From assembly GCA_001724265.1 (NCBI GenBank), contig MEDY01000203.1:1-53076 (forward strand): a DNA stretch of 53,076 nucleotides. The letters run 5' to 3'. How positions within the stretch are numbered: position 1 is the stretch's first letter; each line of letters starts with the position of its first letter. Positions 26,301-53,076 of the stretch are shown in pieces. This stretch comes from Rhizaria sp. SCN 62-66 (Eukaryota). A program made the translations under genes and the position numbers. The notes beneath the pieces are model-generated. The model ran no database searches. It was not told the origin of the DNA and worked only from the letters and a program-made list of their open reading frames with translations.

Positions 26301-29300
26301 GCGCAGAGACGGCAGCTTGGGGACAGCTGCAGCACCGCTGTTGTTGTTCGCGGTCATCATATTGTCTGCAGCAACAGTGAGCAAAGTGTGCGCCAAAGGC
26401 AGTGGCATCAAACTCGCCGTTACAGCGGCCGCGCTCACAGAAGCAGTGTTCAGTGTGAAACCGCCGATAGCCACTCCGCTGTCACTGTTGCCCACAGTTG
26501 TAGCTGCGCGGGCAACGCCACGTGCGACAGGTCGAGCAATCTCTAAAGTCAAGCCGCGGACGCGGATGACGGCCGTAGTGACCGCTGTTGCAACAGCAGC
26601 GCTCTCAGTTGCCGCAGTCGCAGGCAAAACAAACGCGAGCGTGCCATAAGTGCCCGAGGCCGGCGTCAGTGCCCTTGGCGGCGGAATCAGAGTCGTGTAC
26701 GGATGCCGCCATACAGAGAGCTGCGCAGGAGGGACAAACCCGCATGTGGCGTTCGCGGCAGCAGTGGCAATAGCAGCCGCGACGGAGGCGGCAGCGGGGT
26801 GCAAGAGGCCACGGCTACTGGTGGTCCTTGGCGACAGCACAGTGAGAGGCGCAAAGGGAAACGTAGCAATACATGCGGAGCTGGCTTGCGCAAAGTGCAC
26901 CGGTGTGATGAGACGGAGGTCAGCAACGCTCATCGTTGCCTCAGAAACGTACCACCTCACCAGAGCACTGGCACTGCGAGAGGGCTTAAACTGATAGTTA
27001 GAGGTCGAATACACGTCTCTATCGCTCCCACTATCGTCGTTGTCGTCATTGTCACCATCGTCGATAGCGTCAGCAGGAGAAAGGGCAGCACGACCAGTAG
27101 TCGTGTTGCGGGCGCCTGTGAAGCCATTGTCACCGACAGCCTCTGTTGTCTTAGTCTCAGCACGTGCGTTCTTTTCACCAGCATCGCGCTTCTCAGTGGC
27201 GCTCGAGTTAGAATCGTTGCTCTCGAGACTGCTGGGAGACTTGGCCGACGCAGAAGCAGCTGTCGGAGTGGAACCAAGCCCAGAGCGGGCCTTCAATGCC
27301 GTCGCGACCGTGCTAAGCAGTGAAAAACCAAAGCCACTGAAAAAACCGCCGCTGGGGGTCTCGGCCTCCGCGCGAGGCCCCTGCTCAGCATCGTGATGAG
27401 CGTCATCAGTCTTCGACTCTGCATCAGTGACGCTGATAGCAATAGAATCGGGCTTATTGCTAACGTTGGAGTGAGCTGATTCGGCGTCATCAAGAGGAGC
27501 CTGTTTGTTGAAGTTGCTCTGTGTCATCTTCGTGTCCGCGAACGACTCCGTGAGCGACTGCGAGCGCGACTTCGACGTCCTCTCGCGGTCGGCTTCGGCA
27601 GCGCTCGTGTCGTCAGTCTCAGCTGGCAGCGCGAGAACGGAAGACATAAACACGGTCAAGGCGGCCAGGCTTTGAATCTCCTCGACCACAGTCACTTCGC
27701 TAGCCTCCAGTGTAATCTTCACTGCGATACTAGCTGCTCGTGTATCATCAACAGGGGAAATTGAAGCATGGGGTACAGAGACGGTAAGCACCACCGCGAG
27801 CTTATCCCCACTACCCGCGTCGGTGTTAGAGACTGTGAAACCAAGCAAAGGCACAGGCAGCTCGACCATCTCACACGCGCTCGCGGCGTCGGCAGCAGAA
27901 GCGTCAGCGTCAGCGTGCGCGGCGGCCGCTGCGGCCGCGGTTGCGCTCGCCGCAGCGTTGGCCTCGAACTGGCGTGATGAAGCAGCGGCGACAGGCACCG
28001 CAGCAGCGTCTCCAGCAACTTCGTCCTCGTCTTCGTCCTCCTCAGCAGCGGCGGCGGCAGCAGCGGCAGCAGCGGCGGCCGTGGCGGCAGCAGCGGCAGT
28101 AGCAGCAGCGGCGGCAGCGGCTGTGGCAGCCGTAGTCGCAGCGGCTGCGGCTGCCGCAAAGGCAGCGACAGTCCCAGCAACAACGGACGCTGAGCGCGCA
28201 GCAGTCGCAGCGGCGCGGGGCGCGTGTTTGCCAGTGTACACGAGCAAAGAGCGCGCGCCCAGAGTGACGCCAGTGCTCGGAGGCTGTGCGATGCTCGATG
28301 CCACCGGGCCCGTAGAGCTCTGCAGGCCTGTGGCGACGAGGCAAACAGCGCCAGCCTCGGCCTCCGCCTCGGCCTCAGCAACCGCAGCCGCTGCAGCGGC
28401 AGCAGCGGCAGCGGCAGCCTTGAAGCCGCTAAGACTGCTGCTACTGCTGTTGGCGTCCGCGCGAGCACGGGCGCGAGCGCGTGCGCGAGCGGTCTCAGTG
28501 TCTGCAGTGGGCGTAAGAGAGAGTGACATAACGCCGGTCACGCTTACAGTCACTTCCCGTGATGCGCTGTAGTCGCCAATGACAGACGGGAACAGAATAG
28601 AGGCCGCGTGCGCCAAGAACTGCCGGAGACGCCGCGAGCGCCCGCCGCCGCCGCGCGCGCGGGGACCAAGGAACGAGGCGGGCACCGCTGCGGCCACGGA
28701 GGCGGCAGTCACGATGGTGCGGCTGTAGCGGTGCTTCTGGCTCTGCGTCTGCTGTTCGGCGGGAGCCGACTGAGAGTGTGAGCGCGTGGGCCGCGGGAGC
28801 GCGGGGACGGCAAGCGGGAGCAGCAGTTGCGGTGCGGTCACCGTGAGCAGCAGCTCTAGATGCAAGATATCAGCGAGCGAAGTTACAAGCGCAGTGCCGT
28901 CTTCGTCATCAGCAACTGCGTTCGCATCAGCCGCAGCGTCCGCAGCAGCCGCGGCCGCCGCGGCAGTCGCGGTTGCGGCCTCGGCCGCGCCGGCCTCCGT
29001 GTATGGCGCCGCAGTGGCAGCGGCGGCGGCAGCGGCAGCAACGATCGCGGCCGCAGCAGGCGCGGTCGGCAGGGCGGTCCAATCACGCGCGTTTACAGTC
29101 AGCGCGCGCGCCGCGGCGGCCACACTGGCGCACCAACGCTGCGGCGCCAGGGACGCGGCCATGCCCCCCGCCGCTGCCGCAGCAACGGCAGACACCGCCG
29201 CAGCCGCTGCAGCGCCGCCCGCGCCCGCCACAGCCGCGGCGACACTCGCGACAGTCGCGCTAGCCGTGTTCTCAACCGCGCTGGCGGCCGCGGCGGCCGC

Positions 29301-32300
29301 GGCGGAGGCGGAGGCGGCGGCGGCGTCAGCCGCAGTGCCCGTGCGGGACTGCACGCGCTGCATCGCGGCGGGGCCGGAGTGGTGGCCGCCAGCAGCCGGG
29401 CTAAAGTGGCTGAGGTGCAGGCTGGACCGGCGGCCGAGGTTAGACTCGTTATCGCCCGCCAGCGCAGCGGCGGCCGCGGCGGCCGCGGCGGCAGAGGCGG
29501 AGTCCGTTTCAGTCGCAGCTGCGGCTGCAGCGGCTGCAGCTACTGCGGCTGTAACAGCGGCCGCTTCCTCAGCGGCTTCGGCGCACTGGCCCCAAAGCAG
29601 AACTGAGAAAATGGGCTCCCTGAGCTCCGGGGGAAAGAGCAGCGGCCGCGTGAGTGCATCCACAGCAGCGGCAACCCCCTCGGCGGCCGCCGAGGCCGCC
29701 GGGATCGCAGGCACGCGCGCGGACTCGTCGAGCGCGGCGCCGCGGCCGTTGAGCCCGCTCGCGCGGCCGCCGTAGTTCGCGCCGGCGCCCGCAGCGGCCG
29801 AGGCGGTGATGACCGGGGGCGGGAGCGGGCGAAAGGCCTGGAGCGACCGGCACGACAGGAACACAGTGGGCTGCAGCGGGAACGCGAACGGGGGCGGCGG
29901 AGACTCGCGGCGGGCAATATTCGAGGCAGTGATAGTTGAGCTCTCACGGGCGACGGCCTCGTACGCAGCTTCGTCGTCGCTGTCGTGATGGCTGATGCTG
30001 CCGGCAGTGTTGTGGGTGTGAGAAGCGTTGTCGTCGTGGTCCTCATCGCCGTCCGCGACAGTTGCCGTGCCCGCAGCGTTCGCGCTAGCAGTGTTTGAGG
30101 TGGCACCTGCATTCTTCGCAGTAGCGCCTGTGGCGGCAACGTTAGCGTCGGCGTCTGCACTCTGGCCTGGAGCGGCAACAGGTCGGCCGAAAATGAGAGA
30201 TGCAGCCGCAGCAGCGGCGGCGGCAGCAGCGGCCCCAGCAGCAGCAGCGGCGGCGGCCTCGGCCTCAGCATCAGCGTCCGCGGCGCCATCACCACTCAAG
30301 GGCGCAACGGAGGGCAATGAAGACAGGTTCGCGAAAAACGCAAACTGCTCCAAAGGATCCGCATTCGCAGCTGCAGTCGTACCAGCGTCACCAGTGACGT
30401 CATCGTTAACTGCAGCAGTAGTCACCGCAGCAACGCGCTTGTTCTTGGGGCTCTTGCTACTGCTCTTGCTGTCCGTCCTGCCAACACTGTCGTGGCGCCG
30501 AGAGCGGGACGCAGCAGCGACCCTGATCAACGCTGCGGAAGGGACCGCGATGTACGAAAGGTAAGCTGCTTTGCAGTCAGCAGCAGTCGCCAGCAACAAA
30601 GTCTCGGTTAGCAGCGCACGCAACTGAGCCTCAGCCGCGGCGGCCTTGGTCTGGGCGGCCGTGGCCACGGCGCCCGCGCCCGCAGCCACAGCCGCAGCCT
30701 CGGTCGCCGCGTCCGCTGCATCAGTGGCAGTGTTGTCGGGGCCTGGCACGCGTGGGGAATGCGCTCGCACGCGCAGAGACACTGCGGGCACGTCAGCCGT
30801 AACCGCGACTGCAAGCGAGGGCGGTGCGGAAGTGACTGGCGGCAACGAGCGCAGCAGAAGTGGCAGAATAACACGAGTGGCCGTTGCAGCGATGGAAGCG
30901 ATAGACGCGTGGACAGCAGTCGCGGCAGAAACAAGTGAGAATGAATCTTCGTTGTGTTGCAACTCGGCGTACTCACACTCAGAAGCGGCGTCAAAATCAT
31001 CGTCGTTGACATAACCAAAAGAATAGTTGTCCTCGCAGTCATCGGAGTCCTGGACGGAGCTATTCAGATCATTATCATACGCAATGTGGTCCTCACCGTC
31101 GTAGCAGCACTTGCGAGGGCTGTGGCCGTAACTGTTGAAATGATTGTGCGTCGCCGCCGGAGCACGCTGTGGCAGAGTCAGAGTGAACGTGACTTGTTCG
31201 ACAGTCCGGATGCGCAAAGTTAAGTCGCCCCTCACATCACGCACGTCGCGGCCATCAGCGGAAGCGACACTCTCACCGTGCTTGCCGGTCAAAGATAAAG
31301 CAGAGTCCGTGGCAACAGAAGCACCACTGGGGAGCAGCAAAGAGCTAAGTCCGTCAACATGTGAGCTGTCAAAATCGCTACTCTCGTCATCATCTTCGCC
31401 GTCAGAATCGCTCGCGAAAATGCTGGAATCGCCGTCATGGCCAGTAATCGCATTGCCGTGAGCCGCATCGCCAGCGAACAGCAAAGCCACGCTGCTGCCA
31501 CTGCTGCTGCGGTCACGCGCGCCGCTCTTGCGCCCGCTGCGACTGCGCCGGGGGCCGTGGTGGTGAGTCGCTGCGAACGCGGCAGAGACGGTTGGCATGT
31601 CAGCGCACAACAGCACAGGCCCACCGGAGACCGTGAGCAGTGGCTCGAAGTTTGAAGCAACAGCGACCGCGCTCGCGCTGCAGCTGCGGCTGCAACTGTG
31701 CGTTGGGGAGCGGAGCTGGGCCGGGCGAGCACCGCGCGGCTGAGGACGGAGGTCTGACTGCAGCTGCCCGCTGCGCACGCTATTGTAGCGGTTCAGGTAG
31801 CGAGACGGGCCGCTCTCAGCAGGCGACGGAGGCAGCATGAGCTCGCTCTGCTGCTGCAGCTGCAGATGCAGCTGCGATGACAACGGCGCCAGTGACTGAG
31901 AGAGCGACCGTGTTCGCGAGCGCGACTGCGACAGAGACTGGGAGAGTGAGTGAAAACGCGACTGAGGAGTCGCCCAAACGCCGCCAGCCGTGGTGCCACT
32001 CGCGTTGCTGCTCACACTGCCGCTGCGACTGTTTGCTCCGCTGCTGCCCGGTGTGCCGCCAGCGTACGCACCACTTAGACTCGAGTAAGCGCTCTTCTCG
32101 CCTGTGTAAGGGTGTGAAACAGTGAGCTTAAACGCGCTCACGTCGCACTCAAACGCGCTGCGGCCCGCTTTCGCGCCAGAAGCCAAGTCGCCCCACCTCG
32201 AAGTTAAGCCGTGGCGGTAGTGCCCGTTCCACCAGCGCCACCACCAGGCGTTGTCTTCCTCCTCCGCCTCCGCCTCGGCCACCGCTGCGGCAGCGGCAGC

Positions 32301-35300
32301 CCCAGCAGCAGCGGCGGCCTTCGCGGCCCCTCCAACCACGGACACAGCGTTGACAGAGGCGGGGACGGTCGTTACGTTGGACGCGGCCTTGTGGCCACGC
32401 TCGACCGCAGCTGCTGCGGTCGTCGGGGGCTTGAGTTTGGAAGCGGCAACACGCGGGCCAGTTGCAAGATTTGCAGTGTGTCCGAGCGTCGCATTCGCGG
32501 TCGCAGCAGCCTTGGCCGCAGCCGCGGCCGCTGCGGTCGCAGCAGCAACCGCGGAGACAGAGGCGGAAGCAGACGCAGAGACCGGCGGCAATGTGGCTGC
32601 ACGTGCTGCAGCGAGCAAGCGGGAACGCGACGGGGCAAGGAAAGTTAGGCCGCGCAGCTCGCCGCTCACTGTCACGGCGCTGACAAAGCGACTGCGACTC
32701 GTCGGTTTGAGGGCGCGTGACTCTGAAATACTCACACTATTGATGTTGCTACTGTAACTGTTTCCGCCGCTGTTGTTGCGGGCACGGGTCTGTTTACTCG
32801 CAGCCGTGGTATTGGTTTTCGCCCGCGGAGTCGAACTCTGGCTCACATCAAGTCCATGAGCGTTTGCGCTCCCACCTGCATCGACACCAGATCTTGCGAA
32901 ACTTGAACTGTTAGTCGTAACAGTGAGCTGTGACGTAACCGTAAGCGCCTCGAGACTCGACATCAAACTGTAGCCGCGCTCAGCAGTGTCTATAGTGCCA
33001 TGCGCATCGACCGCGGTCGATATGCTGCTAGAGTCAAGCAGAGGCAGCCACCCAGTGGCAAACGTGCCAGCGGCTGCCGCGACAAGAGCGCTAATGCTAA
33101 CTGCTGGCGGACTCGCAGCAGAAGCGAGAGCAGCATTGTCGCTCGTCGCTGAGGGGCTGTGCGCATAGTGACCGTGAGCAAAGAGCTTCGGGTTAACGCC
33201 GAGCAATGCGCACGCAAAGGTCCCAGCTTCCGCAGCTGCCAAAGCGGCATCTGAGTTCGCGAATTGCGGGCTAGTGCTATAACTACTGTGAGTGGTGAGA
33301 GACGACGGCAGCTGCAGTGCCCATGCACCACGGCAAGTGACTGTAATGACTTCGCTTTCGGCGTCGGCAGTGATGGAGAATGCTGAGACGAGATCAGATG
33401 CAGCACCTGTCGGGGAGTCAGACACTGTCGTGTTCGTCGAGAAAATCACAAAGTGGCCATTATCAGCCGCGCTCGGCAGCGTGGTATCAGCATCTTTAGA
33501 GTCATGCTCATTCGCAGCAGCGGGTCCGGAAACAGAATCAGTCTCGTTGGCTGTGTTTGCATCAGCTGCAGTCTCATTATCGGTGCCAGACGCTGCCACG
33601 GGAGCGCGGCGCGGCAGCAATGTGACCGTGATCGACTGCGCTGACGCGCGCGCACAGAGGGGCGCCGTCGCGATAACAGGGTCAGTGACCGTGAGCAACA
33701 GCACCGGCCGCTCAGTGCTGGCCGTCGCTGCACTCACGAGTGCCGGGACCAGAGAGTGCACGTGTGCGGGCGAAAGCTGGCGCGTACAGAGCCGCATCTG
33801 CCGCTGCAGCTCCAGCTGGAAGCTCTGCGTCGACTGCAAATGCAGCTGCTGCTGTTGGCCACGGCCCGGAAACGAGCCGTAAGAGCTCTGGCCGCGGGAC
33901 GCAGCAGCGGCGGCGGCAGCGGCGGACGCGGCGACTGCGGCGGCGGCAGCAGCGGTGGCGTTACTGTTGCTGCTGCCGCCCGACGCTGCGCCGCCGCTGC
34001 GGGTCATGGCGCGCGACGGCCGCGACTGGTACTGAGACTGGGACTGAGACAGAGACTGGGGCGGGAGCTGCGACTGCTGGCGCGACGGGAGTCGGGACAG
34101 CGACCGCGGCGACAGCGGCGAATGCGACTGTGAACCAGCACCCCAGCCGCCAGAAACCTCGCGATCTTCGTCGTTGTGGCTGTAGCTCGTCACAGCGTCA
34201 GTTGGTTCACCATCAACGCTGCTGAATGCGCTGTGGTTTGAATTCGCGCTATGGGTTGTGTTCATGTGCATTGTAAAGCTGTCCTCGTCCGCCTCCTCTT
34301 CCCGCTCGTCCCACCCGCCCAGGCCCGCGGCCCTGCTCCGGCCAGCGCCGCTGTCACCGCCGCCGAACGCGCGGAGCCCGGAGGCCCGCGGCGTGGCCGC
34401 AGCGGAGGACGGCGTGGGTGCGGGCTGAGGGGGCGGAAGCGCAAGGCCGCGGGTGGCGGGCACCGGGAGTGCAACCGCAGCTGTGCACACAGTGGCGGCT
34501 GCGGCGACGAGCAGGCGGTGGTGCTCCGGGTCTGCGGCGGGGAGTCCGTAGAAGGGAATCCACAGGACGGCCGCGGAGGCCAGCAACGGGGCCCATGGGG
34601 AGCCGCTGCCCCCGAGCCCAGCCGCGTGAGAGCTACTCGCAGCACGCGCCGTGCTGGGCTGCGCGATGGAGCTGGCGCTGGCTGAGGGGGGAATGGTAGG
34701 CAGGCCGGTGCAAGTGCTGTGGTGCGGGAATGCGAGAGCGAGCGCGGGCAACAGGGGAGTCCCGGACAGCAGTGCCAGCGACAGCATCTCGATCGCAGTC
34801 GGCCCCGGTGCAGCAGCGTTATAGCCCCCAGCACTAGGACCAGAACCAACACCGGCGACAGTACCAGCGCCAGTCGAAGCAGAGGCGGAATCAAGGCTTG
34901 CTGCAGGCGTAACGGACGAGGCACCCGAACACGCAGGCAAGGTGGCGGCAGCGGCCGCGGCGGAGGCGGCAGCAGCGGCAGCGGCTGTGGCAGCAGTTGC
35001 TGCGGCCGAGATCGGGAAATGCGACGTCCTGAACGGCCTGCGCGCGCTGCCGCTAGCAGTGCTCGCGGCCGCAGCGGCTGCGGCAGCAGCGGCGGCAGCG
35101 GAGGCAGCGGAGGCAGCAGAGGCAGCCGCGCTCGCATTAACCGCATCAGCCCCGGCGTTGCCGACGCTGCCCGCTGCATTCGCCGCAGCAGCAGCAGCAG
35201 CAGCAGCAGTGGCCGCAGCGGCCGCAGCGGCCGCAGCAGCAGCAGCCGGGTCGCCTCCGGGCCGGCCCGTGGCCGCGGCAGCACTCGTGGCGGCCGCAGC

Positions 35301-37829
35301 GGCCGCAGCCATCGTCGCCGCGTACGTCGCGGTCGCGCTGGTGCTGGCCGCAACGCCCGCGAGAAAGGCGGCGGACGGGGGCGTCAGGTCTGTCGAATCA
35401 AAGCTAAGCCGCGCCGACGCAACTGTGATGTCGCAGATGACGTCAACAATGGGCGCATCAGGGGACAGTAAAAGCGCAGCAGCAGCAGAGTCGTGGACAG
35501 TGTTCGAGTTCACAGAGCTGCGGTGGATTGCGGCAGGGACTGGCGGGGCAAGCCTGTTGCAATTGATGTGACCATAGTTGCTGTTGATAGCGCTGCTGCT
35601 CGAGCCAGCGCGAGCCTGCGGCTTGCGATAACGGCGGCGGCGGCATCCGCGCGCGTGCCCGCTGCCGCTGCAGTGCCCGCGCGCCGCGGCCGCGGCCGCA
35701 GTCGCCGCGAGCGGGTTGGGGTGCGCGAGCACGGGCGTGGGGTCCGACAGCGGCAGCGGAAAATCGCGACGCAGGTTCCTAAAAAAGCGGTTGATCACCT
35801 TCTGGGTGCGCGCGGAGTGCGCCAGCGACGGTGGCAACACGAGCTGGGGGCCGGACATCGCGGTCGCAGCGGCGGCAGCAGCGGAGACAGAGGCGCCCGC
35901 GCCGGTGCTGAGCTGGCCGTTCGCGCTGTTACTGCGCCCCCGGTTCGCAGCGCTGTTGCTGGCCGCCACCGCAGTCGTCACGATGGGCGGGCGGGCAAAC
36001 AACGGCCCCGGCGCGCGCTGCCAGCGGCCCAGGGTAACAGTGAGCGCGCCCAGCGTCGCCACGGGCCGCAGCCCCACGGTCGCGCCTCCGAAGGCGGTGT
36101 GCGGCGTGGCCGCGGCGACCGACAGAGTGACGGTGGCGACGGAGAACTCGCGCCCCGCCGCCGAGCCGAAGCAGTGGCGGTGACGCGAGATGTGCGCGAG
36201 GGAAGCGAGGACGACTTCGCTGTGCGTCGAGCCCAGCTCTTCTTCAGTCGCGTGTGCTTTCGGCTGCTGCTGCTGCTGCTGGAGCCTTTGCGAGTTGCGG
36301 CAGTCACACTCACTCTCACTCTCGCTGCCGCTGCTGTGCACTTCTGTGAGCAATTGTGTCTGCGAAAGCGCTGCAGTGCTCTTGGCGCTGTGGGCAGCAG
36401 CACCGGCAGTTGCTTTTGACTCAGTTTCAGTCTCTGTGTCGGTCTCTGTCTGACTACGGACGGCAGTCTTCGCGTTATTGTTATTGTTATTGTTATTGTT
36501 GTTGCTGTTACGGCGATTGTGTGCAAAGCGTGCACGGCCCTTGTGACTCAACGCATGAAGAGCCTTCGCGGTCAGCGCGTGGGAAGTTAGGCCGCCAAGC
36601 GTAACGCGTGCAACAGTCACGTACGCCCCGTTGGCGTTGTGCGCACGGCCCACAGCCGCAGCGCTACTGCTGGCGCCCGTGTCAGTGAAGATAGCAGACG
36701 CGGCGTCGTTGTCAGCAGCGGCCGCAGCGGCGGCAGCAGCGGCAACAGCGGCGGCAGCGGCAGTCGCAGCAACATCGGGACTCGTGCTAGAGCTTGCCGC
36801 CGCCGCAGCCTCGGCAGCGCTCGCGTAGCCATGACCGTGACCGTGACCGTGAGCGTCACTGCCGGTGTACGCGCCTCCCGGGGAGGACAGCGAGGCGAAG
36901 CTGCCGCGGCGAACCGAGGTGTCGTAGCGGTGCAGATACCCGCCCACGGCGCTCACACTGCCACGCGCCCGGCCGCCGCCGAGATCCGCAGCGCCGACGA
37001 TAGAGACACTATCACCAGAGGCAGCAGCGGAGCGACCGTGAGTCGCGCTGAAGTGGGTGTGCGCGACCGCAGCGCCCGCCGCGGCCGCCGCGCGCGCCGA
37101 GAGCCCGTGGGCCGGGGCGCTGAAGTGTCCGTGCGCGCGCATGGCGTTGAGCGCGAGCCCGTGCGCAGCGGGGGCGGGCGCTGGGACCGCAACCGCGACG
37201 GACAGCGAGGCGACCGTGAACTGCGTGCGGGAGAAAGCGGTGCGCAGCGTCTTCTCGTTCACGCCGGTCAGCATCGTCAGGAACAGGTCCTTGAGCAGCG
37301 TCGACAGCGTCAGCGCGCTCGCGGCAGCGTCCGGGGCAGTGCGAGCATTGCTGTCAGTGCCGTCGCTCGCGGTCGCGGTGTTGGGCAGAGCGAGGAGTGT
37401 GGTTGTGGCGGTGTTGATCGTGACTGTGGGCGCGCTGTCAAGGAAGTCCGTCAGCGGCAGCGTGACTGCAATCGAGTCGAAGTGGGCCGAGTCGAACTGC
37501 CACCGCATGCCGCTGTTATCCTCCCCTGTGTTTGCGCTGTTGGCGGCGCTTGAGTGAACAGCGGAAGCAGACGCAGACTCAGTGCTGCTGCCAACGCCTG
37601 TGCCAGCCCTAAAAGGACCGTGCTGCGGTGCGGCCACGGTGTCTGCGGTGGCAAAAGCGCGCGAGAGCGCCGCCAGGACGTCCTTGCGCAGCGACACGTC
37701 GCGCAGCTCGAATGACGAAAACGATGTGATTGTGAGTTCGACGCCGGGCCGCAGCGGGCCCGCGAAGAGCAGCTCGAGCCGGTGCCGCAGCGGGCCCGTC
37801 AGCAGCCACGGAGCAAGGCGGGAAAACAT
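5397..37829 (-). CDS. Giant VPS13/chorein-N (bridge-like lipid transfer)-like protein, ~10,810 aa including one internal TAG at 7199-7197; heavily expanded by Ala/Ser/Gln low-complexity inserts
   Basis: The 10,210-aa ORF (37829-7197) continues in frame through TAG (PNAYP*PQQPQQVQQQ) into the 580-aa ORF and ends at TAA 5399-5397. The N-terminus (FELRDVSLRKDVLAAL...FDSAHFDSIAVTLPLTDFLDSAPTVTIN) fits the chorein-N pattern. TLLTVTPLFFARNDTDVWLEV (~20880-20820) and WTRLLTFAPPLVVDNSL (~18570-18520) fit VPS13 VAB/SHR-BD repeat signatures. The ORF is certain; the family call is inferred. Confidence 0.7.
6965..7075 (-). repeat. CAG/CAA repeat encoding poly-Gln tracts in the C-terminal part of the giant protein
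   Basis: Reads PQQQQQQQQLQQQQQQLHEQQQQQLQQQQQQLQQQQ on the minus strand. Confidence 0.9.
36474..36509 (-). repeat. AAC/AAT repeat encoding poly-Asn inside the giant ORF
   Basis: (gttatt)n on the + strand, read as NSNNNNNNNNNN on the minus strand. Confidence 0.9.
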
Positions 37830-38532: not shown

Positions 38533-40016
38533 TTACTCGGCGACGAACTCGTCGAGGATCGTGGTCTGCACGAGCTTGCCGGTGACGAGGTAGGGGTCCA
38601 TGTTGCTCGCAGGCCGGCGGTCCTCGAAGTAGCCCTTGCCCTCGAGCTTGGCCGTGCGCGGGATGCGGATGCTCGCGCCGCGGTTCGCAACGCCGAACGA
38701 GAACTTGGAGATGGGCGCGGTCTCATGCGCGCCCGTAAGGCGGCGCTCGTTGCCGACGCCGTAGACGGCAATGTGCTCCTCGTGCTTGCGCTCGAGCTTG
38801 GAGATAGCCAGCAGGATCGCCTCGAGCCCGCCCTCTGCGCGCATGGCCGCAGTCGAGTAGTTGGTGTGGCAGCCCGCGCCGTTCCAGTCGCCCGGGATCG
38901 GCTTCGGGTCAAAGGAGACGATGACGCCAAAGTCCTCGCAGACGCGCAGCAGCAGGTAGCGCGACACGATCAGCTGGTCGCCGCCGGCGATGCCGACGCA
39001 CGGGCCGACCTGAGGGGGATCAAGTTGATAACAAAATAGATGTTTGAGTGGAAATATGACGTGAGTTGTGTTGCAAAAGTAAATAAATACAACAATTCAT
39101 ATATGTTTCAAGTATATGTACGATTTTTATCCATATATTCGAGCATATCATTGAGATTTGTTCGCTAGAGAGTGAAGTTAGCGTACCTGGTACTCCCACT
39201 GGCCGGGCATGACCTCGGCGTTCGTGCCGGAGATCTGGACGCCGGCGTAGAGGCACGCCTTGTAGTGCGCCTCCACGACCTGGCGGCCGTAGCTGTTTTG
39301 CGTGCCCGCAGAGCAGTAGTACGGGCCCTGTAACATCAGATATAAACAAAGACACAAAGACAGAAAAGTTAGTTCAAGAATAAATTTAAGTGAAAGATCA
39401 TCATATACAAAGCTCAATTTAAGTTGAAAAATAGGGTATCAAAAACAATGCAATATAATTGAAAGATACTGTGGTGCGATATCAAGCAGTGACGTCAGTC
39501 AAGATAAGTAGAGCTCATGCAACGCACCTGGGGTCCCGGGTAGCCGAACTTGGGCCAGCCGAGCGGCGTGACGCCGTCGCGGTCGAAGAGCGTGTACTCC
39601 TGCTCGATGCCAAACCAGGGCACCTCGGCCTCGGCGGCGGCCATCGCGAGCGCGGCCTTGCGGCGCGTGTTGGACGGGATGGGCGTGTTCTTGCCGTCGG
39701 GCAGCACGCACTCGCACAGCACGATGTAGTTGCCCTCGACGGGGCGCATCGGGTCGGGGTAGTAGGCCACGGGCAGCAGGTACACCTCCGAGTCGCGCCC
39801 AGGGGCCTGCTTAGTGGAGGAGCCGTCGAAGTTCCAGATGGGGAAGTCGGCCAGCGACTCAGGCTTGCTGGTCATGGTACGCGTCTTGGAGCGGATGTCG
39901 GCGCCGCTGCTGGCCGTGCCGCCGATCCAGATGTACTCGGCCAAGTACGAGCCGCGCTGCGGGAGCGACGCATAGCGGTTGGTCACCTCCCAGGAGAGAA
40001 CGGGTGCGTAGGACAT
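38533..40016 (-). CDS. GLUL: Glutamine synthetase type II, ~368 aa; exons 40016-39528, 39327-39187, 39009-38533
   Basis: Diagnostic motifs [88 protein letters not shown] and [15 protein letters not shown]. Two phase-0 introns (GTGCGT...CAG, GTACGC...CAG). TAA stop. Confidence 0.97.
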
Positions 40017-40450
40017 CGCGGGGAAAGCGGAAGTCTCTAAGACGTTAGACAACAGTGGAGCAGCGGTCAAGCGGTTGAGCGTTTGAGAGTGAAGGGGGAG
40101 GGGAGAAAATGAAGAGTTTGGGTGAGATCAAACGAAGGAATTGAGTGCTGAGCGAAAATATTCTGGAAGAATATGTGACCCGATATCGAGTATATCTAAG
40201 AAACTTGACAAGAACATGCGGAGTCGTGGTGGGATGCAGCGGCGCGCGAGCGGTGGTCGAGACAGTTGAATGACCCCTACTTGGGCAGAAGCAGGATATC
40301 CATGCATACCACTGCGAAAACTACCCTCGGGTTGACACAAAAAAAATAACAGTGTGTAAAGTATACGGTCATTAAAAATAAAAGCCGGGGCACGACGACT
40401 GCATCGAAAGTTTTCTCTGATACAACAACTCACACGAGGTCGACAACAAT

Positions 40451-40535
40451 CAGACTGACTGACCACCGACCTGCCAGTCAACCGCCCCAACCACAAATCG
40501 CTTTTTAGTCGTTCGGTCGGCAGTCAGTCAGTTTG
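40451..40535. repeat. Imperfect 21-bp inverted repeat in the divergent GS/DDX46 promoter region
   Basis: cagactgactgaccaccgacc (40451-40471) versus ggtcggcagtcagtcagtttg (40515-40535): 18 of 21 positions are complementary. Confidence 0.7.
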
Positions 40536-40797
40536 GCAGTTAGTCGGACACTCGCAACGGTCTCTGGCTTGGTCACCGCAGCGATAGGGACGCGCCGTGC
40601 ACGCAGATCTCCGTTAACTGAGTTATGGGTGCTGTCTGTGTTTTTAATAAGTGTGCTCTGTATTTCTTTCTTTTAATGTCGCTCAAACTCTTCAGCTTAC
40701 CTGTCGTCTCGTTCCCTCTCTTCGTCGTCTTTCCTAGTCCACACCCGCCGAACACTCCTCCGCCTCCACACGCGCGCGCGGCTCACAAACACTCGTC

Positions 40798-43700
40798 ATG
40801 TCCAAGCCAGCCGTGGGCATTAAGATCACACTTGGTGGCAAGACCTCCACCGCAGGAGCGCGCCCCCTCAGTTTCGCCAAGCCCGCCGCCTCCGTGCGCT
40901 CAGTCTTCTCCGCCTTCGACGCCTCGTCGGACTCCGCATCGTCTGCTTCTGCTGCTGCTGTGACAACAAATCACAACAGCGCGTTGTCCTCCGCCGTGGT
41001 CCCGGATGCCAAGCGCGCGCGCCTTGCTTCTGACAACACCTCCGACGCTTCTGGCTCTGATGAGAAGCTGAGCAGTATCGACGAGTTGATCGCCTCAGGC
41101 TTCCTCGACAGGCCTCTCGACGCCAGCACGGTCAGCGCCGCCGCCGCCGGCGACGACGATGACTAGGGCGACAGCGCCAACGTCGACGGAGGTGACGCCA
41201 TTGCGGCCGCGGTGGCTGCGGCCAAGGCTGTGGCCGTCGCGGCCGCCAAGTCCGCCGGCGTCACTGTCCCCACCACCACAAACACAAACAAAGTGGGCAC
41301 TGCCTCGGCTGCTGCACCTGTGAACGGCTCTACTGGCGGCGCCGGCGCTGCGATGACGGACTCCGTGCCCGACGCGAGCGCAAGTGCTGCCGCGGCTGCG
41401 GCTGCTGCTGACGGGGGCGATAACAGTGTCGACGCGTACCTCGCGACGCTGATGGCCACGGTTAGTGACCGTGAGCGCGCCGACATTGCGGCCGCTAACG
41501 CGCTCAAGGCCGTCCCCGCCGCGCAGCTCGCGCAGCACGGCAACGCGAACGCCGGTGCGGGCGCAGCTGCCGCCGCTGACGCTGCCGCCAAGTCCGGCGA
41601 CGCGTCCGCCTCATCTGCGGCTGCGAGCATGAGCACTGGCGCTGGCGCTGGCTCTGGCGCTGGCTCTGCTGGTGCGATTGGGCGCGTGTTCGACGACGAA
41701 GAGGAGCTTGACGAGGCCGACTACGCGGGCGGCGACACGACCGTAGCAGCGGCCCAGCGCGCCTTTGCGGCCACCATCGCCGCGCGCGCGCAGAAGCTGA
41801 TCAAGCCGTACGCGCCGCCGGCCGAGGGCGAGCGCCCCGTGGTCAAGGCGCTGTACCGCGAGCACCCAGACGTGGCCGCGCTGAGCGATGCCGAGGTCGC
41901 GGCCGCACGCAAGGGCCGCCTCGACTCGGTGCGTCTGCGCGGACTCCGCATTCCGCGCCCCGTGAGCAAGTGGATCCACTGCGGCTTCCCAGCGAAGGTC
42001 GACGCCGTGCTCGCTGCCTAGGGCATGCCCGCGCCCTTCCCAATCCAAGTACGGCGATTTTGCATTGTGATATTGCGTAGGGATTAAATATGTCTTTTTA
42101 TACGCTTGCGTGTTTAAGAGGCGGCTATTTTTCACATCTGACTTCATTTTCCGCTTGTTCTGACTTGTTTTTTCTGCTTCATTTTAGATGCAAACGCTGC
42201 CCGTGATTATGAGTGGCCGCGACTGTATTGCCTGCGCCAAGACCGGCTCCGGCAAGACCTTGGCGTTCACGCTGCCCATGGTCCGCCACATCTTGGCGCA
42301 AGACGACCTCGCGCCCGGCGACGGGCCCATTGCGCTCATCCTCGTCCCCACCCGCGAGCTCGCTGTTCAGGTGCGTAAAACAAAAGTCGCTTCTTCAACG
42401 CAAAATCACATAATTACCGAGAATTATAATGATATATAGTACGAATTGTAAGTATGTTCTTATTTGAATGTCATTTCTTCTATTTACTGCATTTTATTGT
42501 TTTGTAGATCACGACCGAGGTGCGCAAGTTCGCCAAGCCGCTGGGGCTGCGCGCCGTGGCCGTGTACGGTGGGCCCAACATCTCGGAGCACATCGCGAAG
42601 CTCAAGGCGGGCGCGCACATTATTGTCGCGACGCCGGGCCGCATGATCGACCTGCTGACGGTGAACAACGGCCGCACGACGAACCTCACCCGCGTGAGCT
42701 ACCTGGTCATGGACGAGGCGGACCGCATGTTCGACATGGGCTTTGGTGACCAGGTGCTGCGCATCATCGCCGGCACGCGCCCAGACCGGCAGACGCTGCT
42801 ATTCAGCGCGACCTTCCCCCGGGTCGTCGAGGCGGCCGCGCGCAAGGTGCTTACTCAGCCTGTCGAGGTCGTCATCGGCGGCCGCTCTGTGGCGTCGAGC
42901 GACGTGACGCAAATCATCCACATTCTGACTGAGGAGCAGAAGTTCGCGAAGCTGACCGAGATCCTTGCGCAGTGGTACGAAACTGGCAACATCATCATCT
43001 TCGTCGACAAGCAGGAGTCGGTGGAGCTCATGTTCCGCCACCTGGCGATGGCTGGCTACCCGGCACTGGCGGTGCACGGTGGCATGGACCAGATCGACCG
43101 CAACGCCATGATCGCCGACTTCAAGAACAAGATCCGCACGCTGATGGTTGCCACGTCGATCCTCGCGCGTGGGCTTGACGTCAAAGACCTGGTGCTGGTG
43201 ATCAACTACGACATCCCGACCCACTACGAAGACTACGTGCACCGCATCGGCCGTACGGGCCGCGCCGGCGCGCACGGCACCGCCATCACGTTCCTCACCC
43301 CCGACCAGGACGCGCACGCGCCGGACTTGGTCAAGGGGCTCGAGAAGGCCGGTCAGGAGGTCCCCGCGCCGCTTGCCGCGCTTCTGGAGAACTTCAAGGC
43401 CAAGGTCAGCCGCAACGAGGCGCGGTACCGCAGTGCCACGCTCGGCTACAAGACCAGCGGGTTCAAGTACGACGAAGAGGAGGCCGCGGCGCGCGCCGAC
43501 AGCCAGCTGTTGCAGCGCGCCGCGCGCGCCGAGGCGAACAACATGATGACGGACGAAATCACCGAGGCGCTGGAGCGGAAGCGCGAGCGCGACGAGGCCA
43601 AGCGCGCCGCGGCGCTCGCCGCGAACGTCGGCGCCAAGGCTGCGGGGGCTGGCGCTGGCGCTGGCCCTGGCGCTGCAGGTGGCGCAACAGCTCTATCGCG

Positions 43701-44274
43701 CGCGGGCTCCGTTCTCGCCAACAGCAGCGCCGCTGGTGGCGCTGCAGCTGCGGCGGGCACGCCCGCGGCGGGGGCGGTGCTGAGCGCGGAAGACGAGGCA
43801 GCGAGCCGCCTGGAGGCCGCGCTGGCGATGATGGCCCAGGTCGAGCGCACCGTGGGCGCCGCTGCCGGGGCCGCCGCCTCCGCTGCCGGGGCTGCGGGCG
43901 CGGGCGCGGGCGCGGTGACGACCGCGGGCGCGAGCGCGGGTGTGGCCCGCATCGCGACGTCGGTGGTGGAGCGCTTCAGCGCCGAGCTGGAGGTCAACGA
44001 CTACCCCTCGCAGGCGCGCTGGAACGTGCTCAAGAAGCCCTACTTGGATATGATCCGCGAGGAGTTTGGCGTCGCCGTGACGTCCAAGGGCCAGTACCGG
44101 GAGCCCGGCGCGGCTGGCGCGGACGGCGTGCGGCCGCTATACGTGTTGATCGAGGGCAAGTCCGAGGAGATGGTGCGGCGGGCCAAGATGGAGATGCTCA
44201 ACACGGTCGAGCGTGACGCCGCACTGGTGCGGCCCGACGTTGCCACGGCCACGCAGGGCAAGTACAGCATCTGA
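40798..44274 (+). CDS. DDX46: Pre-mRNA-processing DEAD-box RNA helicase Prp5/DDX46, ~1,066 aa; exons 40798-42048, 42188-42370, 42508-44274; internal TAG codons at 41164-41166 and 42019-42021
   Basis: Motifs: [28 protein letters not shown] (Q-motif), [58 protein letters not shown]46-specific [13 protein letters not shown] and the C-terminal KH-like [15 protein letters not shown] are present. Introns 42049-42187 and 42371-42507 are GTRCG...TAG. TGA stop. Confidence 0.93.
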
Positions 44275-44842: not shown

Positions 44843-44875
44843 GGTTCGCGAAAAAGTAAAACTTTTTCGCGAACC
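44843..44875. promoter_or_regulatory. Perfect 15-bp inverted repeat (3-nt loop) about 130 bp upstream of the next start codon; putative regulatory palindrome
   Basis: GGTTCGCGAAAAAGT-AAA-ACTTTTTCGCGAACC read directly. The regulatory role is inferred from position. Confidence 0.55.
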
Positions 44876-46803: not shown

Positions 46804-47041
46804 TTAATTGCGGCCGGCGCGCGCGCTGCGGCGCGGCAGTGCGGTTTCGTCGCCCTCGCCCTCGTCCTCGTCCTCGCCGTCGCTGCCCTCAGCAACCGCG
46901 CCGTCGGCCGCAGACGCGCTCGCACTGTTGCTGTTGCTGTTGCTGCCGGTCCCGCTGGCGACGCGGCGACGCTTGCTCGCAGGTGCCGGTTTGCCCGTCG
47001 CCGCACCGCTCGCGTCATCACCAGCAGCGGCAGTGGCCGTC

Positions 47042-47075
<34 letters not shown>

Positions 47076-50000
47076 CGGCTGTGGCAGCGCTGGCGTCGCC
47101 CGCAGCCGTGGTTGCGGCGGCATAGTACCCGCCCGCAGCAGCGGTGCCGTCCGTCGCCGTCGTCGTCGCCGTCGTCGCTGCGGCCGCGGCGGCGGTGCTG
47201 CCCGCGGGGGCCATCACCGTCGCCGGGTCGACTTGCACTAGCGTGTAGATGGTGCCCAGCGACGTCTGGTAGTACCGATACTGCCAGTAGAGCACGCTCT
47301 CGCCCGCGCCGCCCTCGGCCGCCGCGGTCGTCGTCCCGTCCGCGGCCGTCGTCGTCGCCGACGCACCGGAGCCAGAGCCCGCGCCGAGTGTGGAGTTGGC
47401 CTGCGGCGCCGAAGCGCCGATGTAGACCCACGGCGCATCGTTCATAGCTACGCCGGGCGCGGGGGGCGGAATCGTGACCGTCACGGGCGCAGACGCCGCG
47501 CTGCCCGCGGCGGCGGCGGCCGCGACGGCCTGCTGCTGCGCCTCGACAGCGGCCGCGGCGGCCTGCTGCTGCTGCATCATGGTCGCCGTGTAGATGCCGT
47601 AGGGCACGTAGCCCGTCGCGCCGTTGGAGAACGTCTGCAGCACGACGGGGAGGTAGCCGTACACGGTCGGCAGGTACACGACCTGGGTGGAGATGGCCAC
47701 GATGGTGCAGCCGGCGGGCGGGCCGGAGACGATGCCCGACAGCGACGACGGCGTAAAGGGCGCCACGGCCGCCGTCGTCGCCGTCGTTGCGCCCGTCGCA
47801 GTGCCCGCGCCCGCGCCCGTGCCCGCACTGGTCGCGGCGGACGTGCTGTACTGGCTGTATTGGCCGTAGTAGGCGTTGTACCCCGCCGCCGTCCCCGCGC
47901 CGCCAGCGCCGGCCGCGCCAGTCGTGTTGGAGGCCGCGCCGTAGACCGAGCCCGCGGCGCCGCCGTACGCGGCCCCGTAACTCGCATAGTAGTCCCCCGC
48001 CGTCGACGCGGCGTACGTCACGCCCGCGCCCGCAACCGCGCCCGCGCCCGTCGTGGCGGTGGCCGGGACGGCGGTGGAGTAGTAGCCAGCGGCGGTCGTT
48101 GCAGTCGCGACTGGTACAGCGGCCGTGGTCGCGGTCGACGGAGCGGCCGTAGCGGCGGTGGCCGCGGCGGCGGCGGCGCCGGCAGCGGCGGCGGCGGCAG
48201 CGGCCTTGGTGGCCGCGGTGGTCGCCGCCTTGCTGCCCTTGGCAGGCGTCTTGGCGGCGGAGCCGGCAGCCTTGCTCTTGGAACCGCCCTTGGCCCCGGT
48301 CGCCGTGGCCGCAGTCGGAGCAGGGGTCGCCGCGGCGGCCGAGCCAGTGCCAGCTGAGTGCAGCGCTGAGGCCGGCGCGGCGGCGGCAGCGGCGGACGAG
48401 GAGGCGGTGTCACCGCTGCCGGTCGCCGCGCCGTCGGCGTCGTCGATCATGGCGACGCCGGTGTTGTTGCTCCCCGCGGCGGACGCGGACGACGATGCGG
48501 ACGACGACGAAGCAGAGAGCGCCTGCGTGCGCAGAGCGGTGAGCGCGAGGTAGTAGGGCAGGCCCGAGGCGCGGAGCCAGGGCAGAACCGCCGAGGAGAA
48601 ACGGCCCACGGATGTCTGGCCGCCGCAGCCGAGGCAGAAGGACGCGCACGGCACGCGCGAGCGGCCGTGGGCAGCGACGGCCCTGTCCGTGACGACCCGG
48701 GGCTCGGAGTCCGACTCGGAGTCGGAGGCGCCGTCGCCAGAACCAAAACCGGAGCCGGAGTCAGATCCGTGGCCGAGGCGGCGGGGATGGGACTCGTGGC
48801 TGTCGGAGTCGGTGGTGGGGGCGTCGTCGTCGAAGAAACTGGCGTGACCGCGGGCGCGGCGACTGCGCGCGGAGGCAGCGGCAGCGGCGGAGGCGGCGGC
48901 GGCGGCTGGGGTGATGTCGAGGAGGGAAACGACGGCGTTGTCGTCGTCCTCGTCCTCCTCGTCCTCGTTGCTGTCGTCGCCGCCACGGCCCTCGTCGTCG
49001 TCCTCGTCGTCGGCGTCGCCGCTGTGGTCGCGGTCCTCGTCCTCGTCCTCGTTCTCGTCGTCGTCGTCGCTACTCTTACCGCCCTTGCCCTTGCCCTTCC
49101 CCTTGCCGCCAGCCTTCGCAGCAGCGCCGGTCTTGGCCTTGCTGTTCTTGCCCTTGTTAGAGGCAGCAGCAGCGGGTGCGGACTTGGCGCTCTTGCCCTT
49201 TGCAGCCGCGGCGCCGGAGGCGGCGGAGGCGCTCTTGGCGGCAGCAGCGACGCGGCTCTTCTTGCTCGCTTGCTGCACCGCAGACTCGCTGTCGCCAACG
49301 CTCTTGATCCTGCCCTTGCTGCCGGCAGCGCCGCTCTTGGCGGCGCCGGCGCCGGCCTTGCCCTTACCCTTCGCCGAAGACTTGGCCGAACACGATGTGG
49401 CATCATTCGCACCGCGCTTGGCGTCAGCAGAGGCGGTGGCGCTGTCGTCGCTGCCGCGGCGGCCGCCCTGGCGGCAGCGGTGACCGAGGCCGAGGCTGAG
49501 GCTGAGGCTGGGACTGGGCCGGAGACGGGACGGCGGGCCGGCGAGCGGTGCGAAGGGGCCTCCGTACACGCCGTAGATGTCGGCGCTCGCGTCCGAAGCG
49601 GCGTTGGCGCTGGCGCTGACGGCGCGGGCCTCGCCGTCCGCCGTCTTCTTGCTCGCAGCGGCCTTGGCGCCGGTCTTGGCGGCGGCGGCCGAGTCGGACT
49701 GCTCCGAATCAGCCTCGGCGATGCTGAAGAGCGCCGAGGACGAGGCCGGCGCCGACAGCGCGGCGCCCGCGGCGGGCACGGGGTACGCGTAAAGCGGCGC
49801 GCAAAAAGTCAAGCCGCGTTGGGGCGCGGAAGTCAGGCCGCCCGCCCAGCTGGACTGGACGATTGAGACGCCCGCGGCGGTGCACGCGCTCTGCGAGAAG
49901 CCCGTGGTGACCGCACCGGTGCCCGCACCCGTCGTCACCGTCGTCGTTGTCGTCGTCGTCGTCGTCGTCGTCGTCATCGTCGTCGTCAGGGTCGTGGTGG

Positions 50001-52682
50001 TGACGGACAGGCCGGCGCTGTTGGTGCCGGTGATCGTGCTCGCGGTGCCCGCGGCGGCGGAGGACGGGAAGTACGGCAGACTGCGGCCGTGCGTCTGCGG
50101 CGTCGCCACAATGGCTGCGGCAGCGTCGGACTCAGTCTGCTGTTGCTGCTGCTGGCCCTGCTGCGACGACGCGTGAAGCTGCTGCGCGTACTGGCGCGGA
50201 AGGAAGCCCCCCGGCACGAGCTGCGCGGGCATAACTGGCAGCACGCCCGCAAACAGCCGCGCCGCGCCGTTGCCGCGGGCGCCGAAAGTCGCGGCGTGCG
50301 GGGACACGCCCGGCGGCACGCCCCAGCCCAACCCCCAACCCAGGCCCCAGCGCGGCGGGCGGCGGCGCGGCAGAGACGCGGCCGCGGCGAGGCGCCGGCG
50401 GCGGGCCACGCTGCAGCGGCGGCTGTGGCCGTAGGTGTGGCGACGCGCCTTGTTGCCGCTCTTCTTAGCCGAGGCTTTGGCCTTGCCAGTGGCCTTGTTT
50501 GACTTCGCGGAGGACTTGGAGGCGGAGGAGGACTTGCCGCTCTGGCCCTTGCCGGAAGACTTGGCGACGGCAGCTCTCTTGCTCGAGCCCTTGCTCTTGC
50601 TCTTCTTGTCGTCCTTTTGCTTGTCGGCGCTCTTCTGCGCGGACTTGCCCTTCTTGTCGCTTTTGTCACTCTTGTCGCTCTTGCGACCGCTATTGCTCGC
50701 TGCAGCGGCGCGGGGGCGAGCGGGCGTCGCGTGGATCGCAGTCGCGGGAGCCTTCACAGCGGAGCCCGTCTTTGAGTTGGACCCAGCGCCAGCGCTGGCA
50801 GAGGGGCGGCGCGGCGTGGCGGCCACGGGCGACAACGGGCCGCGGCCGCTGCCGTAGCCACCGTTGCTGTTGCTGTTGCTGCTGCCGCCGCCGCCGGCGG
50901 AGGCGGTGAGCGGCCAGCCGGCGGCGGCAGCGTCTGCGGCGCCCGCGGCCGTGGCGGCGGCGCGCGTGATGGGCAGCTGCGATGCCGTGACGAGCGGCAC
51001 GAGCGGCGGGCACGACCTCAGCCACGCCTGCTGCGACGGGAAGCCGAAGCAACACTGCTCACAGTCGCTGCCGCAGTCGACGTCGCAGTCGACATCACGG
51101 TCGTTGGCGGGCGGAACGAAGCGGTGGCGGCGGCCGTGGCGGTGACGGCGACGGCGAGAGTCGTCGGAGTCGCTGCCGTCGGTGTCGCTGCTGTCGCTCT
51201 TGTCAGCGTCCTCCTCGTCAGCGCTGTCAGAGGCCGCAGCGCTGTCGGTGTCTGACGAAATGACGATGACGTCGCTGTCGTCGTCGCTGGCGCTGGCGCT
51301 AGCCTTCCTGGCAGCCTTAGCCTTGGCGCCGGCCTTGGAGCCCTTTGAGGCTGTAGCGGTCGGCTTCGAAGTGCCCTTGGCCTTGCTCTTCGAAGCAGCC
51401 GCAGCAGCGGCCTTCGGCTTGCCGGCCTTGGTCTTAGCAGCGTGGTCATCACCACTGTCGTCGGTGCTGTCACCAGCGTCGCTGTCGTCGCTGTCGCGCA
51501 TCGCCGCAGCGCGGCCGCTCTTGCCCTTGGCCTTGGACGTCTTGCCCTTGGCAGGCTTAGACTTGCGCTCAGTGCGACTCTTGCTCCTGTGGCTCACGGC
51601 GAGAGAATGGCTGTAGCTGTGGCTGTGCCCGTGCCCGTGCCCGCGAGTGTGGGCCGCCGCGAGCGAGTGCGAGAGCGGGAACACCGCGCCCGCGGGGACA
51701 GACCACGCCAGACCCGACGACAGCACGCCCACCGACGACACACACGACTGCGACTGTGCGCAGTGACCGCGGGCGGCGGAGGGCGGCGCAAGCGTGGGCA
51801 GTCCCAGCCCCGGTGTCCACTGCGCCAGGTAGCCCTCCTCGCCGTGCGAACAGGGGCCCGCGCCAACCGCGCCGTGCCGCGAGAGGAACGAGATCGGGAA
51901 CGACACGAAGTCCAGCGGCGCGCTGCTGCTGAGCGCGCTGCTGCTGAGGGCGCTACTGCTGGCGCTGCTGCTACTGCTGCTGCTGCTGTTGTAGTTGCCC
52001 GCAGCAGACGGCGCGGCGAGGGCCGGGGTTGCCGGCACGGACGCGGTGGCGGCAGCACCCGCAGTCACAGCATTCGCTCCAGCCGCGGCAGTGGCGGTGG
52101 CGGGGGTCGCCGGCGGCGCGAGCGCGAGCGAAGGCATGAACATGGTGTCGGTCGCGCCCGCCGTCGCCGCCGTCGCCGCCGTCGCCGCGGTGGCCGACAC
52201 GGGCATGGGCATGGTGGGGCGCAGCGCGGGGGACAGCACGCCGGGCGTGCCGGCAATGCTCCACCCGCCGTGCGCCGCGCCCGCGCCCCCCGCGCCCGCG
52301 CCCCCCGCGGCGGCGCCCCCGGAGCCGAGCGCGAGGGCGCGCGCCGCGGTGGCGGCGACGGCGGGCGCGGCGGGCAGCGGGACCGTCTGCATCACGGCCG
52401 CGGGCCCCAGCCCGAGGGTGGCGGCGGCGACGGACGCCACGGGCAGCATCTGCGTCGGCAGCGACACGGCCGCGTGGGAGAATGACAGCGGCAGCAGCGA
52501 CGGGTGAGACAGCGCGAACGGCGCGTGGTGGCCCGCCACGGCGGCCTCGCTCGCGGTCTGCGCGGCCGCGACTGCGCCAGTAACCGTGTGCGCGCACGAC
52601 GCAGCCGCGATCGCGGCGGCGTTGGCCGCGGCGGCAGCGGCGGACGCAGGGTTAGTGCCAGAGCCAGCGATACAACTGCTAC

Positions 52683-52714
<32 letters not shown>

Positions 52715-53076
52715 GTAGTGCTGCTGTTGTTCGCCGGCGCGGTCGCGGCGAGCACCGCGGCAGCGGCGAAGGCGGCGGCGCGCGCCTGCTCCAACGCGCC
52801 CCAGCACCAAACGTCGTCGCGCACGGCTGCCGAGAGCCCGGGCGCCGCAGCTGACACGGCGGGCGTCGCGGCGGGGGGCAGCACGCCCGCGGCGCTGGCG
52901 CCACTGACGGCGCTGCCCTCGGCGGCGGCCGCCAGGTACGCGGCGCCCGCGGCGGCGGAGGAGGCCAGGGCGGGCGCGAGCAGCGAGGAGGGCCCGACGC
53001 GCAGCCCGCCCGCGCCCACGAGCGCGGCGCCAGGCGGCGCGGCGGCCGCGGCGGCCGCGGCGGCAGCGAGCGCGGC
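46804..53076 (-). CDS. 3' part of a large (>2,090 aa) low-complexity orphan protein (open at window end)
   Basis: Continuous frame from the window end to TAA-TGA at 46806-46801. Contains Ala/Ser/Thr/Gly tracts, Lys-rich basic blocks, Asp/Glu acidic blocks and a Tyr-rich C-terminal region. GC content drops sharply just after the stop. No domain recognised. Confidence 0.75.
49940..49987 (-). repeat. (ACG)n repeat encoding poly-Thr
   Basis: (gtc)n on the + strand, read as LTTTMTTTTTTTTTTTTVTT on the minus strand. Confidence 0.85.

Follow-up and report, generated by a model that had tools for sequence, protein, structure and literature searches.

Nuclear genetic codes in which UAG differs in meaning from UAA were long thought nonexistent and are now known from a handful of lineages (PMC5304391, PMC11687900). 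The rhizarian exLh (Sainouroidea), an insect-associated organism known from transcripts only, is reported to read UAG as leucine (Leu), with termination left to UAA and UGA (Panek et al. 2017, PMC5304391). In that account, 71 genes contain 384 in-frame UAGs, the terminators consist of 56 UAA and 15 UGA and never UAG, and the Leu assignment rests on 82 of 86 hyperconserved sites (PMC5304391). Iotanema spirale (Fornicata) is described in the same source as translating UAG into glutamine (Gln) and ending its genes at UAA or UGA, with 204 UAGs in 126 genes and 104 UAA versus 15 UGA terminators (PMC5304391). Among phyllopharyngean ciliates, UAG is reported to specify Leu in three TARA taxa or Gln in Hartmannula and Trochilia, and UAA is favoured for termination (McGowan et al. 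2024, PMC11687900). Gln and Leu are thereby the precedents described for UAG-only nuclear codes (PMC5304391, PMC11687900). The present analysis concerns a stretch of 53,076 nucleotides (nt) of contig MEDY01000203.1, hereafter the window, which carries a gene for the splicing helicase DDX46/Prp5 with in-frame TAG codons. The evidence from this gene and its neighbours suggests that UAG is probably a sense codon here, while UAA, the preferred stop, and UGA still terminate translation.

The helicase gene was modelled with three exons, a total of 1066 codons and a TGA terminator (Table 1), exon 1 comprising an alanine-rich N-terminal part that reaches the Q motif. Exactly two in-frame stops are found within this model, both TAG, at codons 123 and 408. 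The DEAD-box motifs are complete in the spliced model (Q, I, Ia, Ib, II (DEAD), III (SAT), V, and VI), and two Pfam helicase domains were detected above the cut-off (DEAD, 3.2e-24; Helicase_C, 3.2e-28), together with a C-terminal KH-like domain (PF23469 KH_12, 2.2e-09, 37.8 bits against a cut-off of 27). The expectation of the sequence-only reading that the gene is otherwise intact downstream of the TAG was thus borne out, with the Q motif, all catalytic motifs, and the KH-like domain present. No Pfam family was found above the cut-off in the N-terminal part. A PDB search with exon 3 returned human DDX46 as the best match (E 1.2e-134, 453 bits), the paralogues DDX42 and Dbp2 reaching 262 and 238 bits and yeast Prp5 203 bits. 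The top named database matches were DDX46/PRP5 and plant RH42, and the C-terminal ...GKYSI is the same as in relatives. These comparisons place the predicted protein as an orthologue of DDX46/Prp5, closer to DDX46 than to other DEAD-box paralogues.

Codon 408 occupies a variable helix position, and the PIQ of the Q motif follows nine residues later. Retranslation of the 26-codon segment around it gave the same peptide as the sequence-only reading, with TAG as the stop. The segment was aligned without gaps to human DDX46 by HMMER (chains 6y50_p and 7evo_E), up to ...WVQCGISMKILNSLKKHGYEKPTPIQ of these chains, so the human segment quoted in the sequence-only reading was correct; the TAG, entered as X, stands opposite the histidine of human ...LKKHGYEKPTPIQ. 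The orthologue set was built from 119 non-self matches, from which 9 without TGSGKT and 2 truncated at the N-terminus were removed, leaving 108 usable sequences. In all 108, a W or F precedes TGSGKT by exactly 44 residues, the residue at +5 is G, residues 25-26 are IQ, and GRD is in register. The window fits this register only with the TAG counted as one residue, in agreement with the earlier claim that the codon fills exactly one amino acid slot.

The site had also been described as a variable residue before a conserved glycine, and the first half of this description stands. In 82 distinct orthologue 26-mers, the residue at codon 408 is L in 34, H in 23, A in 5, F in 3, Q in 3, and W in 2, with others in the remainder, and among cluster representatives at 50% identity it is L in 15, A in 14, Q in 13, and S in 11, again with others. 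The following glycine, in turn, is not conserved, as the residue after the TAG is N in 31 of the same 26-mers, G in 26, S in 13, and another residue in 12. Because the position is variable, the site cannot name the inserted residue; Leu is the commonest residue among the orthologues compared, which is not decisive, and the remark that tryptophan (Trp) fits poorly holds only weakly.

The exon 1 coding frame contains 2 TAG, 0 TGA, and 0 TAA in 417 codons, compared with 3-14 stops in every one of the five remaining frames, and such an open frame with the TAG site exceeds chance. The guanine-plus-cytosine (GC) content of the third codon position is the highest of the three in all parts of exon 1 on either side of each TAG (0.75, 0.79, and 0.78). 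The DDX46/Prp5 family is defined by a DPLD-type N-terminal motif, for which a loose pattern matches 88 of the 89 orthologues with at least 250 residues before TGSGKT. The candidate counterpart in the window, SVDAYL, lacks the D-P of DPLD and lies 181 residues before the W, compared with 122-230 residues among the 25 orthologue rows listed. Its location between the two TAGs suggests that the N-terminus is translated in one chain with the helicase core and, therefore, that codon 408 is decoded. An in-frame ATG is present at codon 186, and a start there would bypass the TAG at codon 123.

The codon-408 TAG is reproducible, being letter-identical in DNA contigs of two independent studies. Record 9 of run X3 (41514-42573) and record 17 of run X4 (41639-42542) span position 42019 with 0 other letters, and record 8 of run X3 (39774-41517) likewise spans 41164 with 0 other letters; run X1, as a possible source of the window, was excluded from the DNA support. 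The database fragment P0244, an open reading frame (ORF) found on 4 contigs, stops exactly before the TAG of codon 408, and P0001 begins within exon 3 at a GTG, the helicase having been split by prokaryote-style gene calling. At the RNA level, contigs of the poly(A) metatranscriptome X6 cover 40715-41023 and 41382-41642 in exon 1 and 42589-42804 and 43068-43529 in exon 3, all with 0 other letters. Among the X6 differences listed, none is at either TAG; all 4 A>G differences are in this set, none of them at 42020, and 4 differences, one of them T>C, lie outside it. The depth of X6 is 0 in the bins 40032-40439, 42072-42275, and 44316-44500 and 0.66 in the bin 42276-42479. These values would fit a spliced mRNA, but parts that are merely uncovered are no evidence. 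A depth of 2.57 in the bin 41868-42071 would fit a contig over the exon end with the TAG and was not counted, since that piece is absent from those listed. Neither the joint of exon 1 to exon 2 nor a 24-nt joint within exon 1 is present among the joints listed, 35 further joints lying outside this set. In run X10, one contig links the three exons of the adjacent glutamine synthetase gene (38529-39007, 39185-39326, and 39527-40014) precisely and with 0 other letters, so that introns of 177 and 200 nt are removed. It follows that transcripts of the organism are represented in these data and that, for glutamine synthetase, the GT-AG intron model holds.

The remaining genes of the window were compared for their use of stop codons. 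Over the 14,608 codons of the five genes, the in-frame stops number 3 TAG, 0 TAA, and 0 TGA, and stops in non-coding frames are abundant and mostly TGA. The third TAG belongs to a giant ORF that runs from stop to stop over 5397-38135 on the reverse strand (10,912 codons), without introns and with extremely abundant low-complexity runs of alanine, serine, and Gln. Its coding frame contains 1 TAG but neither TGA nor TAA, and its other frames carry 169-485 stops apiece. Since codon 123 and the TAG of the giant ORF lie in regions without homologues, colinearity rests on one testable site, codon 408. The terminators of the five genes are 4 TAA, 1 TGA (that of DDX46), and 0 TAG. TAA thus ends four of five genes even with a coding sequence of approximately 63% GC, a pattern that parallels reports for other UAG-reassigned lineages.

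Under a sense reading of UAG, codon 408 would be an ordinary codon of a functional DDX46/Prp5 and would supply a single amino acid to the helix that precedes the Q motif. A transfer RNA (tRNA) with anticodon CUA would decode UAG, and the release factor eRF1 would no longer recognise it. Several observations weigh against this interpretation. The in-frame usage of TAG is very low (3/14,608 codons, 0.02%), there are 3 TAG sites only, two of them in low-complexity sequence without homology, and 5 terminators are too few for excluding occasional termination at TAG. Under the codon usage of these genes, random nonsense changes of a single base would yield TAG in 62-65% of cases; the probability of three TAGs in three is therefore about 0.24-0.28, and the TAG-only pattern is not statistically significant. 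ARAGORN identified 0 tRNA genes within the window. A whole-library HMMER search with the end of exon 1 and a word-indexed search with codons 124-417 gave the organism's own fragment P0244 as the sole close match. Among the RNA contig pieces listed, none demonstrably spans 42019, and the X6 T>C difference with a position outside those listed leaves room for U-to-C editing at the TAG site.

One alternative is that decoding is leaky or context-dependent, so that UAG terminates but is read through at some internal sites, or has an ambiguous stop/sense meaning. A near-cognate or suppressor tRNA competing with eRF1 would then produce full-length DDX46 without complete reassignment. The very low usage of TAG would agree with this, GGC follows both DDX46 TAGs and might act as a context, and ambiguous codes have been described in ciliates and Blastocrithidia. 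However, the 3' contexts in DDX46 are TAG GGC GAC and TAG GGC ATG, whereas that of the giant ORF is TAG CCG CAG. Stimulatory readthrough motifs include UAG-CARYYA and UGA-CUAG, neither of which is matched by any of the three contexts. In addition, an essential helicase would need two readthroughs in succession if translation starts at 40798, and none of the five terminators is TAG. This explanation is considered unlikely. A change of the TAG in the RNA appears less probable still, whether by U-to-C editing (to CAG, Gln), by A-to-I editing (to UGG, Trp), or by splicing of the 24 nt at 41998-42021, the GTCGAC...CTAG micro-intron that had been raised as a possible refutation in the sequence-only reading. 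The stretch does have GT..AG ends, and both the unplaced T>C difference and the want of a listed RNA piece demonstrably over 42019 would allow for such a change. However, the stretch is GC-rich and much shorter than the four introns of the window (two modelled and two seen spliced), which measure 137-200 nt and are rich in adenine and thymine (AT-rich). The loss of 8 codons would moreover leave 18 residues in a region that has 26 in 108/108 orthologues, a length of 18 being seen in 0/108, and the micro-intron was accordingly judged unlikely. As to editing, X6 has no A>G difference at 42020, and the process would need to act at three unrelated contexts. We know of no nuclear U-to-C editing of stop codons in protists, which also counts against a change at the RNA level.

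The least probable of the explanations considered is a defective copy in which the TAGs do terminate, with a functional DDX46 elsewhere; such a copy could be an allele with nonsense mutations, a duplicate in decay, or an assembly error that recurs between studies. Three TAGs in three would often be expected from random nonsense mutation, as calculated above, and contigs drop rare variants. However, the independent assemblies of other studies are identical, both DDX46 TAGs included, and exon contigs are present in the poly(A) RNA run. The genes show no frameshifts and, across the 14,608 codons, no other in-frame stop; third-position GC stays highest on either side of each DDX46 TAG, the catalytic motifs are all intact, and 599 codons remain open after the TAG of the giant gene. 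A sense meaning of UAG, with UAA and UGA retained as terminators, is thus the explanation preferred here.

Table 1. Coordinates of the DDX46/Prp5 gene, its in-frame TAG codons, and the other features of the window.
Feature	Position	Strand	Basis or remark
DDX46/Prp5 exon 1, codons 1-417	40798..42048	+	ATG at 40798, GT donor after 42048
In-frame TAG, codon 123, DDDD(TAG)GDSA, low-complexity	41164..41166	+	X3 record 8 (DNA) identical
SVDAYLATL, degenerate DPLDAFM-type motif, codons 210-218	41425..41451	+	Loose pattern match
26-codon W...PFPIQ segment, start of Q-motif region, with TAG inside	41971..42048	+	Translation, orthologue register
In-frame TAG, codon 408, residue 17/26 of segment	42019..42021	+	X3, X4 DNA contigs identical
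Intron 1, 139 nt, GT..AG, AT-rich, phase 0 after PIQ	42049..42187	+	Exon 2 resumes colinear with orthologues; splice modelled
Exon 2: motif I AKTGSGKT, motif Ia PTRELA	42188..42370	+	Gene model
Intron 2, 137 nt, GT..AG, ~24-40% GC	42371..42507	+	Gene model
Exon 3: remaining helicase core, C-terminal KH-like domain, TGA at 44272-44274	42508..44274	+	Pfam, PDB
274-codon ORF, TAA at 3368-3370, no Pfam match	3368..4192	-	ORF scan
Giant intronless low-complexity gene, 10,810 codons from first ATG, TAA at 5397-5399	5397..37829	-	ORF scan
Third in-frame TAG, codon 10313 of stop-to-stop giant ORF, NAYP(TAG)PQQPQQ	7197..7199	-	599 open codons after
Glutamine synthetase type II, 3 exons, no in-frame TAG, TAA at 38533-38535	38533..40016	-	X10 spliced contig
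5'-open ORF, 2090 codons, no in-frame stop, TAA at 46804-46806	46804..53076	-	ORF scan

Several database ORF fragments of other organisms show PIQ followed by non-homologous sequence from V (GT...), at the place of the intron 1 donor (42048/42049), and a phase-0 intron after PIQ seems, from these fragments, to be common to other eukaryotes. Microsatellites of the GCTGGC type, at 41630-41670 and 43640-43900, encode (Gly-Ala/Ser)n and draw hundreds of unrelated metagenome contigs, with a depth of up to 4239 and many spurious joints. In the giant ORF, no Pfam family was detected above the cut-off in the first and last ~1330 residues, and a sub-threshold match to TFIIA in the Q-rich C-terminal part was the sole Pfam match. 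The region 44300-46800 is AT-richer and poorly coding and may hold a small gene with a TAA near 45816 and the C-terminal end ...INPTYTPKAPSATTDGF; no Pfam match was found in the frame 45122-45865, and no homology search was made on this candidate gene.

Across the window, GC-rich blocks of 60-80% GC are interleaved with short AT-rich stretches bounded by GT..AG, and the DNA is nuclear and eukaryotic. Matches to the stretch come from bioreactor, wastewater, and activated-sludge metagenomes of several studies, and the host is an uncultured, GC-rich, intron-bearing microbial eukaryote of such environments. P0135 is the closest database relative of the glutamine synthetase (86% identical), and in a quick single-gene tree both fall inside a large environmental clade, with Plasmodiophora and Spongospora adjoining and oomycetes further out. 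This tree gives a weak hint of a rhizarian affinity of the host. The closest database relative of the DDX46 is P0002 (69% identical). In the window, the glutamine synthetase and DDX46 genes adjoin and are transcribed divergently (38533-44274); P0135 and P0002 each come from a Joint Genome Institute (JGI) contig of 8369 nt, which suggests that the synteny of the two genes is kept in a sister organism. A metagenome scan with P0002 gave 80 loci, the best match being only 58% identical. One of the loci examined, L014, was ruled out as a close relative, its contig having 48% GC and its DDX46 being intronless and stop-free. Ciliate macronuclear genomes appear unlike the window, with its contig of more than 53 kb, its 32-kb gene, its AT-rich introns of 137-200 nt, and its GC-rich exons. 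Tentatively, the host may represent an undescribed, non-ciliate protist lineage of wastewater reactors in which UAG was freed independently, at an early stage of codon capture with very low usage (about 0.02% of codons). The most likely description of the finding is a new lineage with an already known kind of code variant.

In the literature searched, no report was found of a UAG-only sense code in a wastewater or activated-sludge protist. If true, the reading of UAG as sense would add a further independent origin to the rare nuclear codes in which UAG differs from UAA, and one with UAA as the main stop in spite of genes of such high GC. The public metagenome and metatranscriptome runs would offer raw DNA and poly(A) RNA for mining. 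A further GC-rich, apparently unrelated lineage would help to test how eRF1 loses UAG yet keeps UAA and would show whether code changes begin from very rare codon use. It would also indicate how often the gene callers used for metagenomes truncate eukaryotic genes through in-frame UAG, of which the split into P0244 and P0001 is the instance found here.

Compared with human DDX46 and yeast Prp5 (6y50_p, 7evo_E, 7oqb_p), the helicase of the window shares the DEAD-box motifs, a gap-free Q-motif region, and the KH-like domain. It differs in an N-terminus rich in alanine, glycine, and serine, in its degenerate DPLD-type motif (SVDAYL), and in its two in-frame TAGs. With regard to the genetic code, exLh and the window are alike in that UAG is the sole in-frame stop, that UAA in the majority and UGA terminate, and that both belong to a non-ciliate protist. 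However, the 384 UAGs of exLh are spread over 71 genes, compared with 3 over the 5 genes of the window, and Leu is proven in exLh, whereas the single alignable site of the window is variable. The sainouroid Rosculus vilicus has 37.7% GC (PMC10770858), compared with ~63% GC for the contig of the window. Iotanema spirale is similar to the window in its UAG-only reassignment, which is probable for the window, and its dominant UAA terminator, and its UAG density is moderate to low; however, it is an anaerobic metamonad known from a transcriptome only, and nothing ties the window to Metamonada. In the phyllopharyngean ciliates, as is probable for the window, UAG alone is reassigned and UAA is kept as the stop, and the cases likewise come from metagenomic assemblies, but suppressor tRNA genes were identified in them (PMC11687900), compared with none by ARAGORN in the window. 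The window, therefore, presents the same pattern as exLh, Iotanema, and the phyllopharyngean ciliates, at a much lower UAG density.

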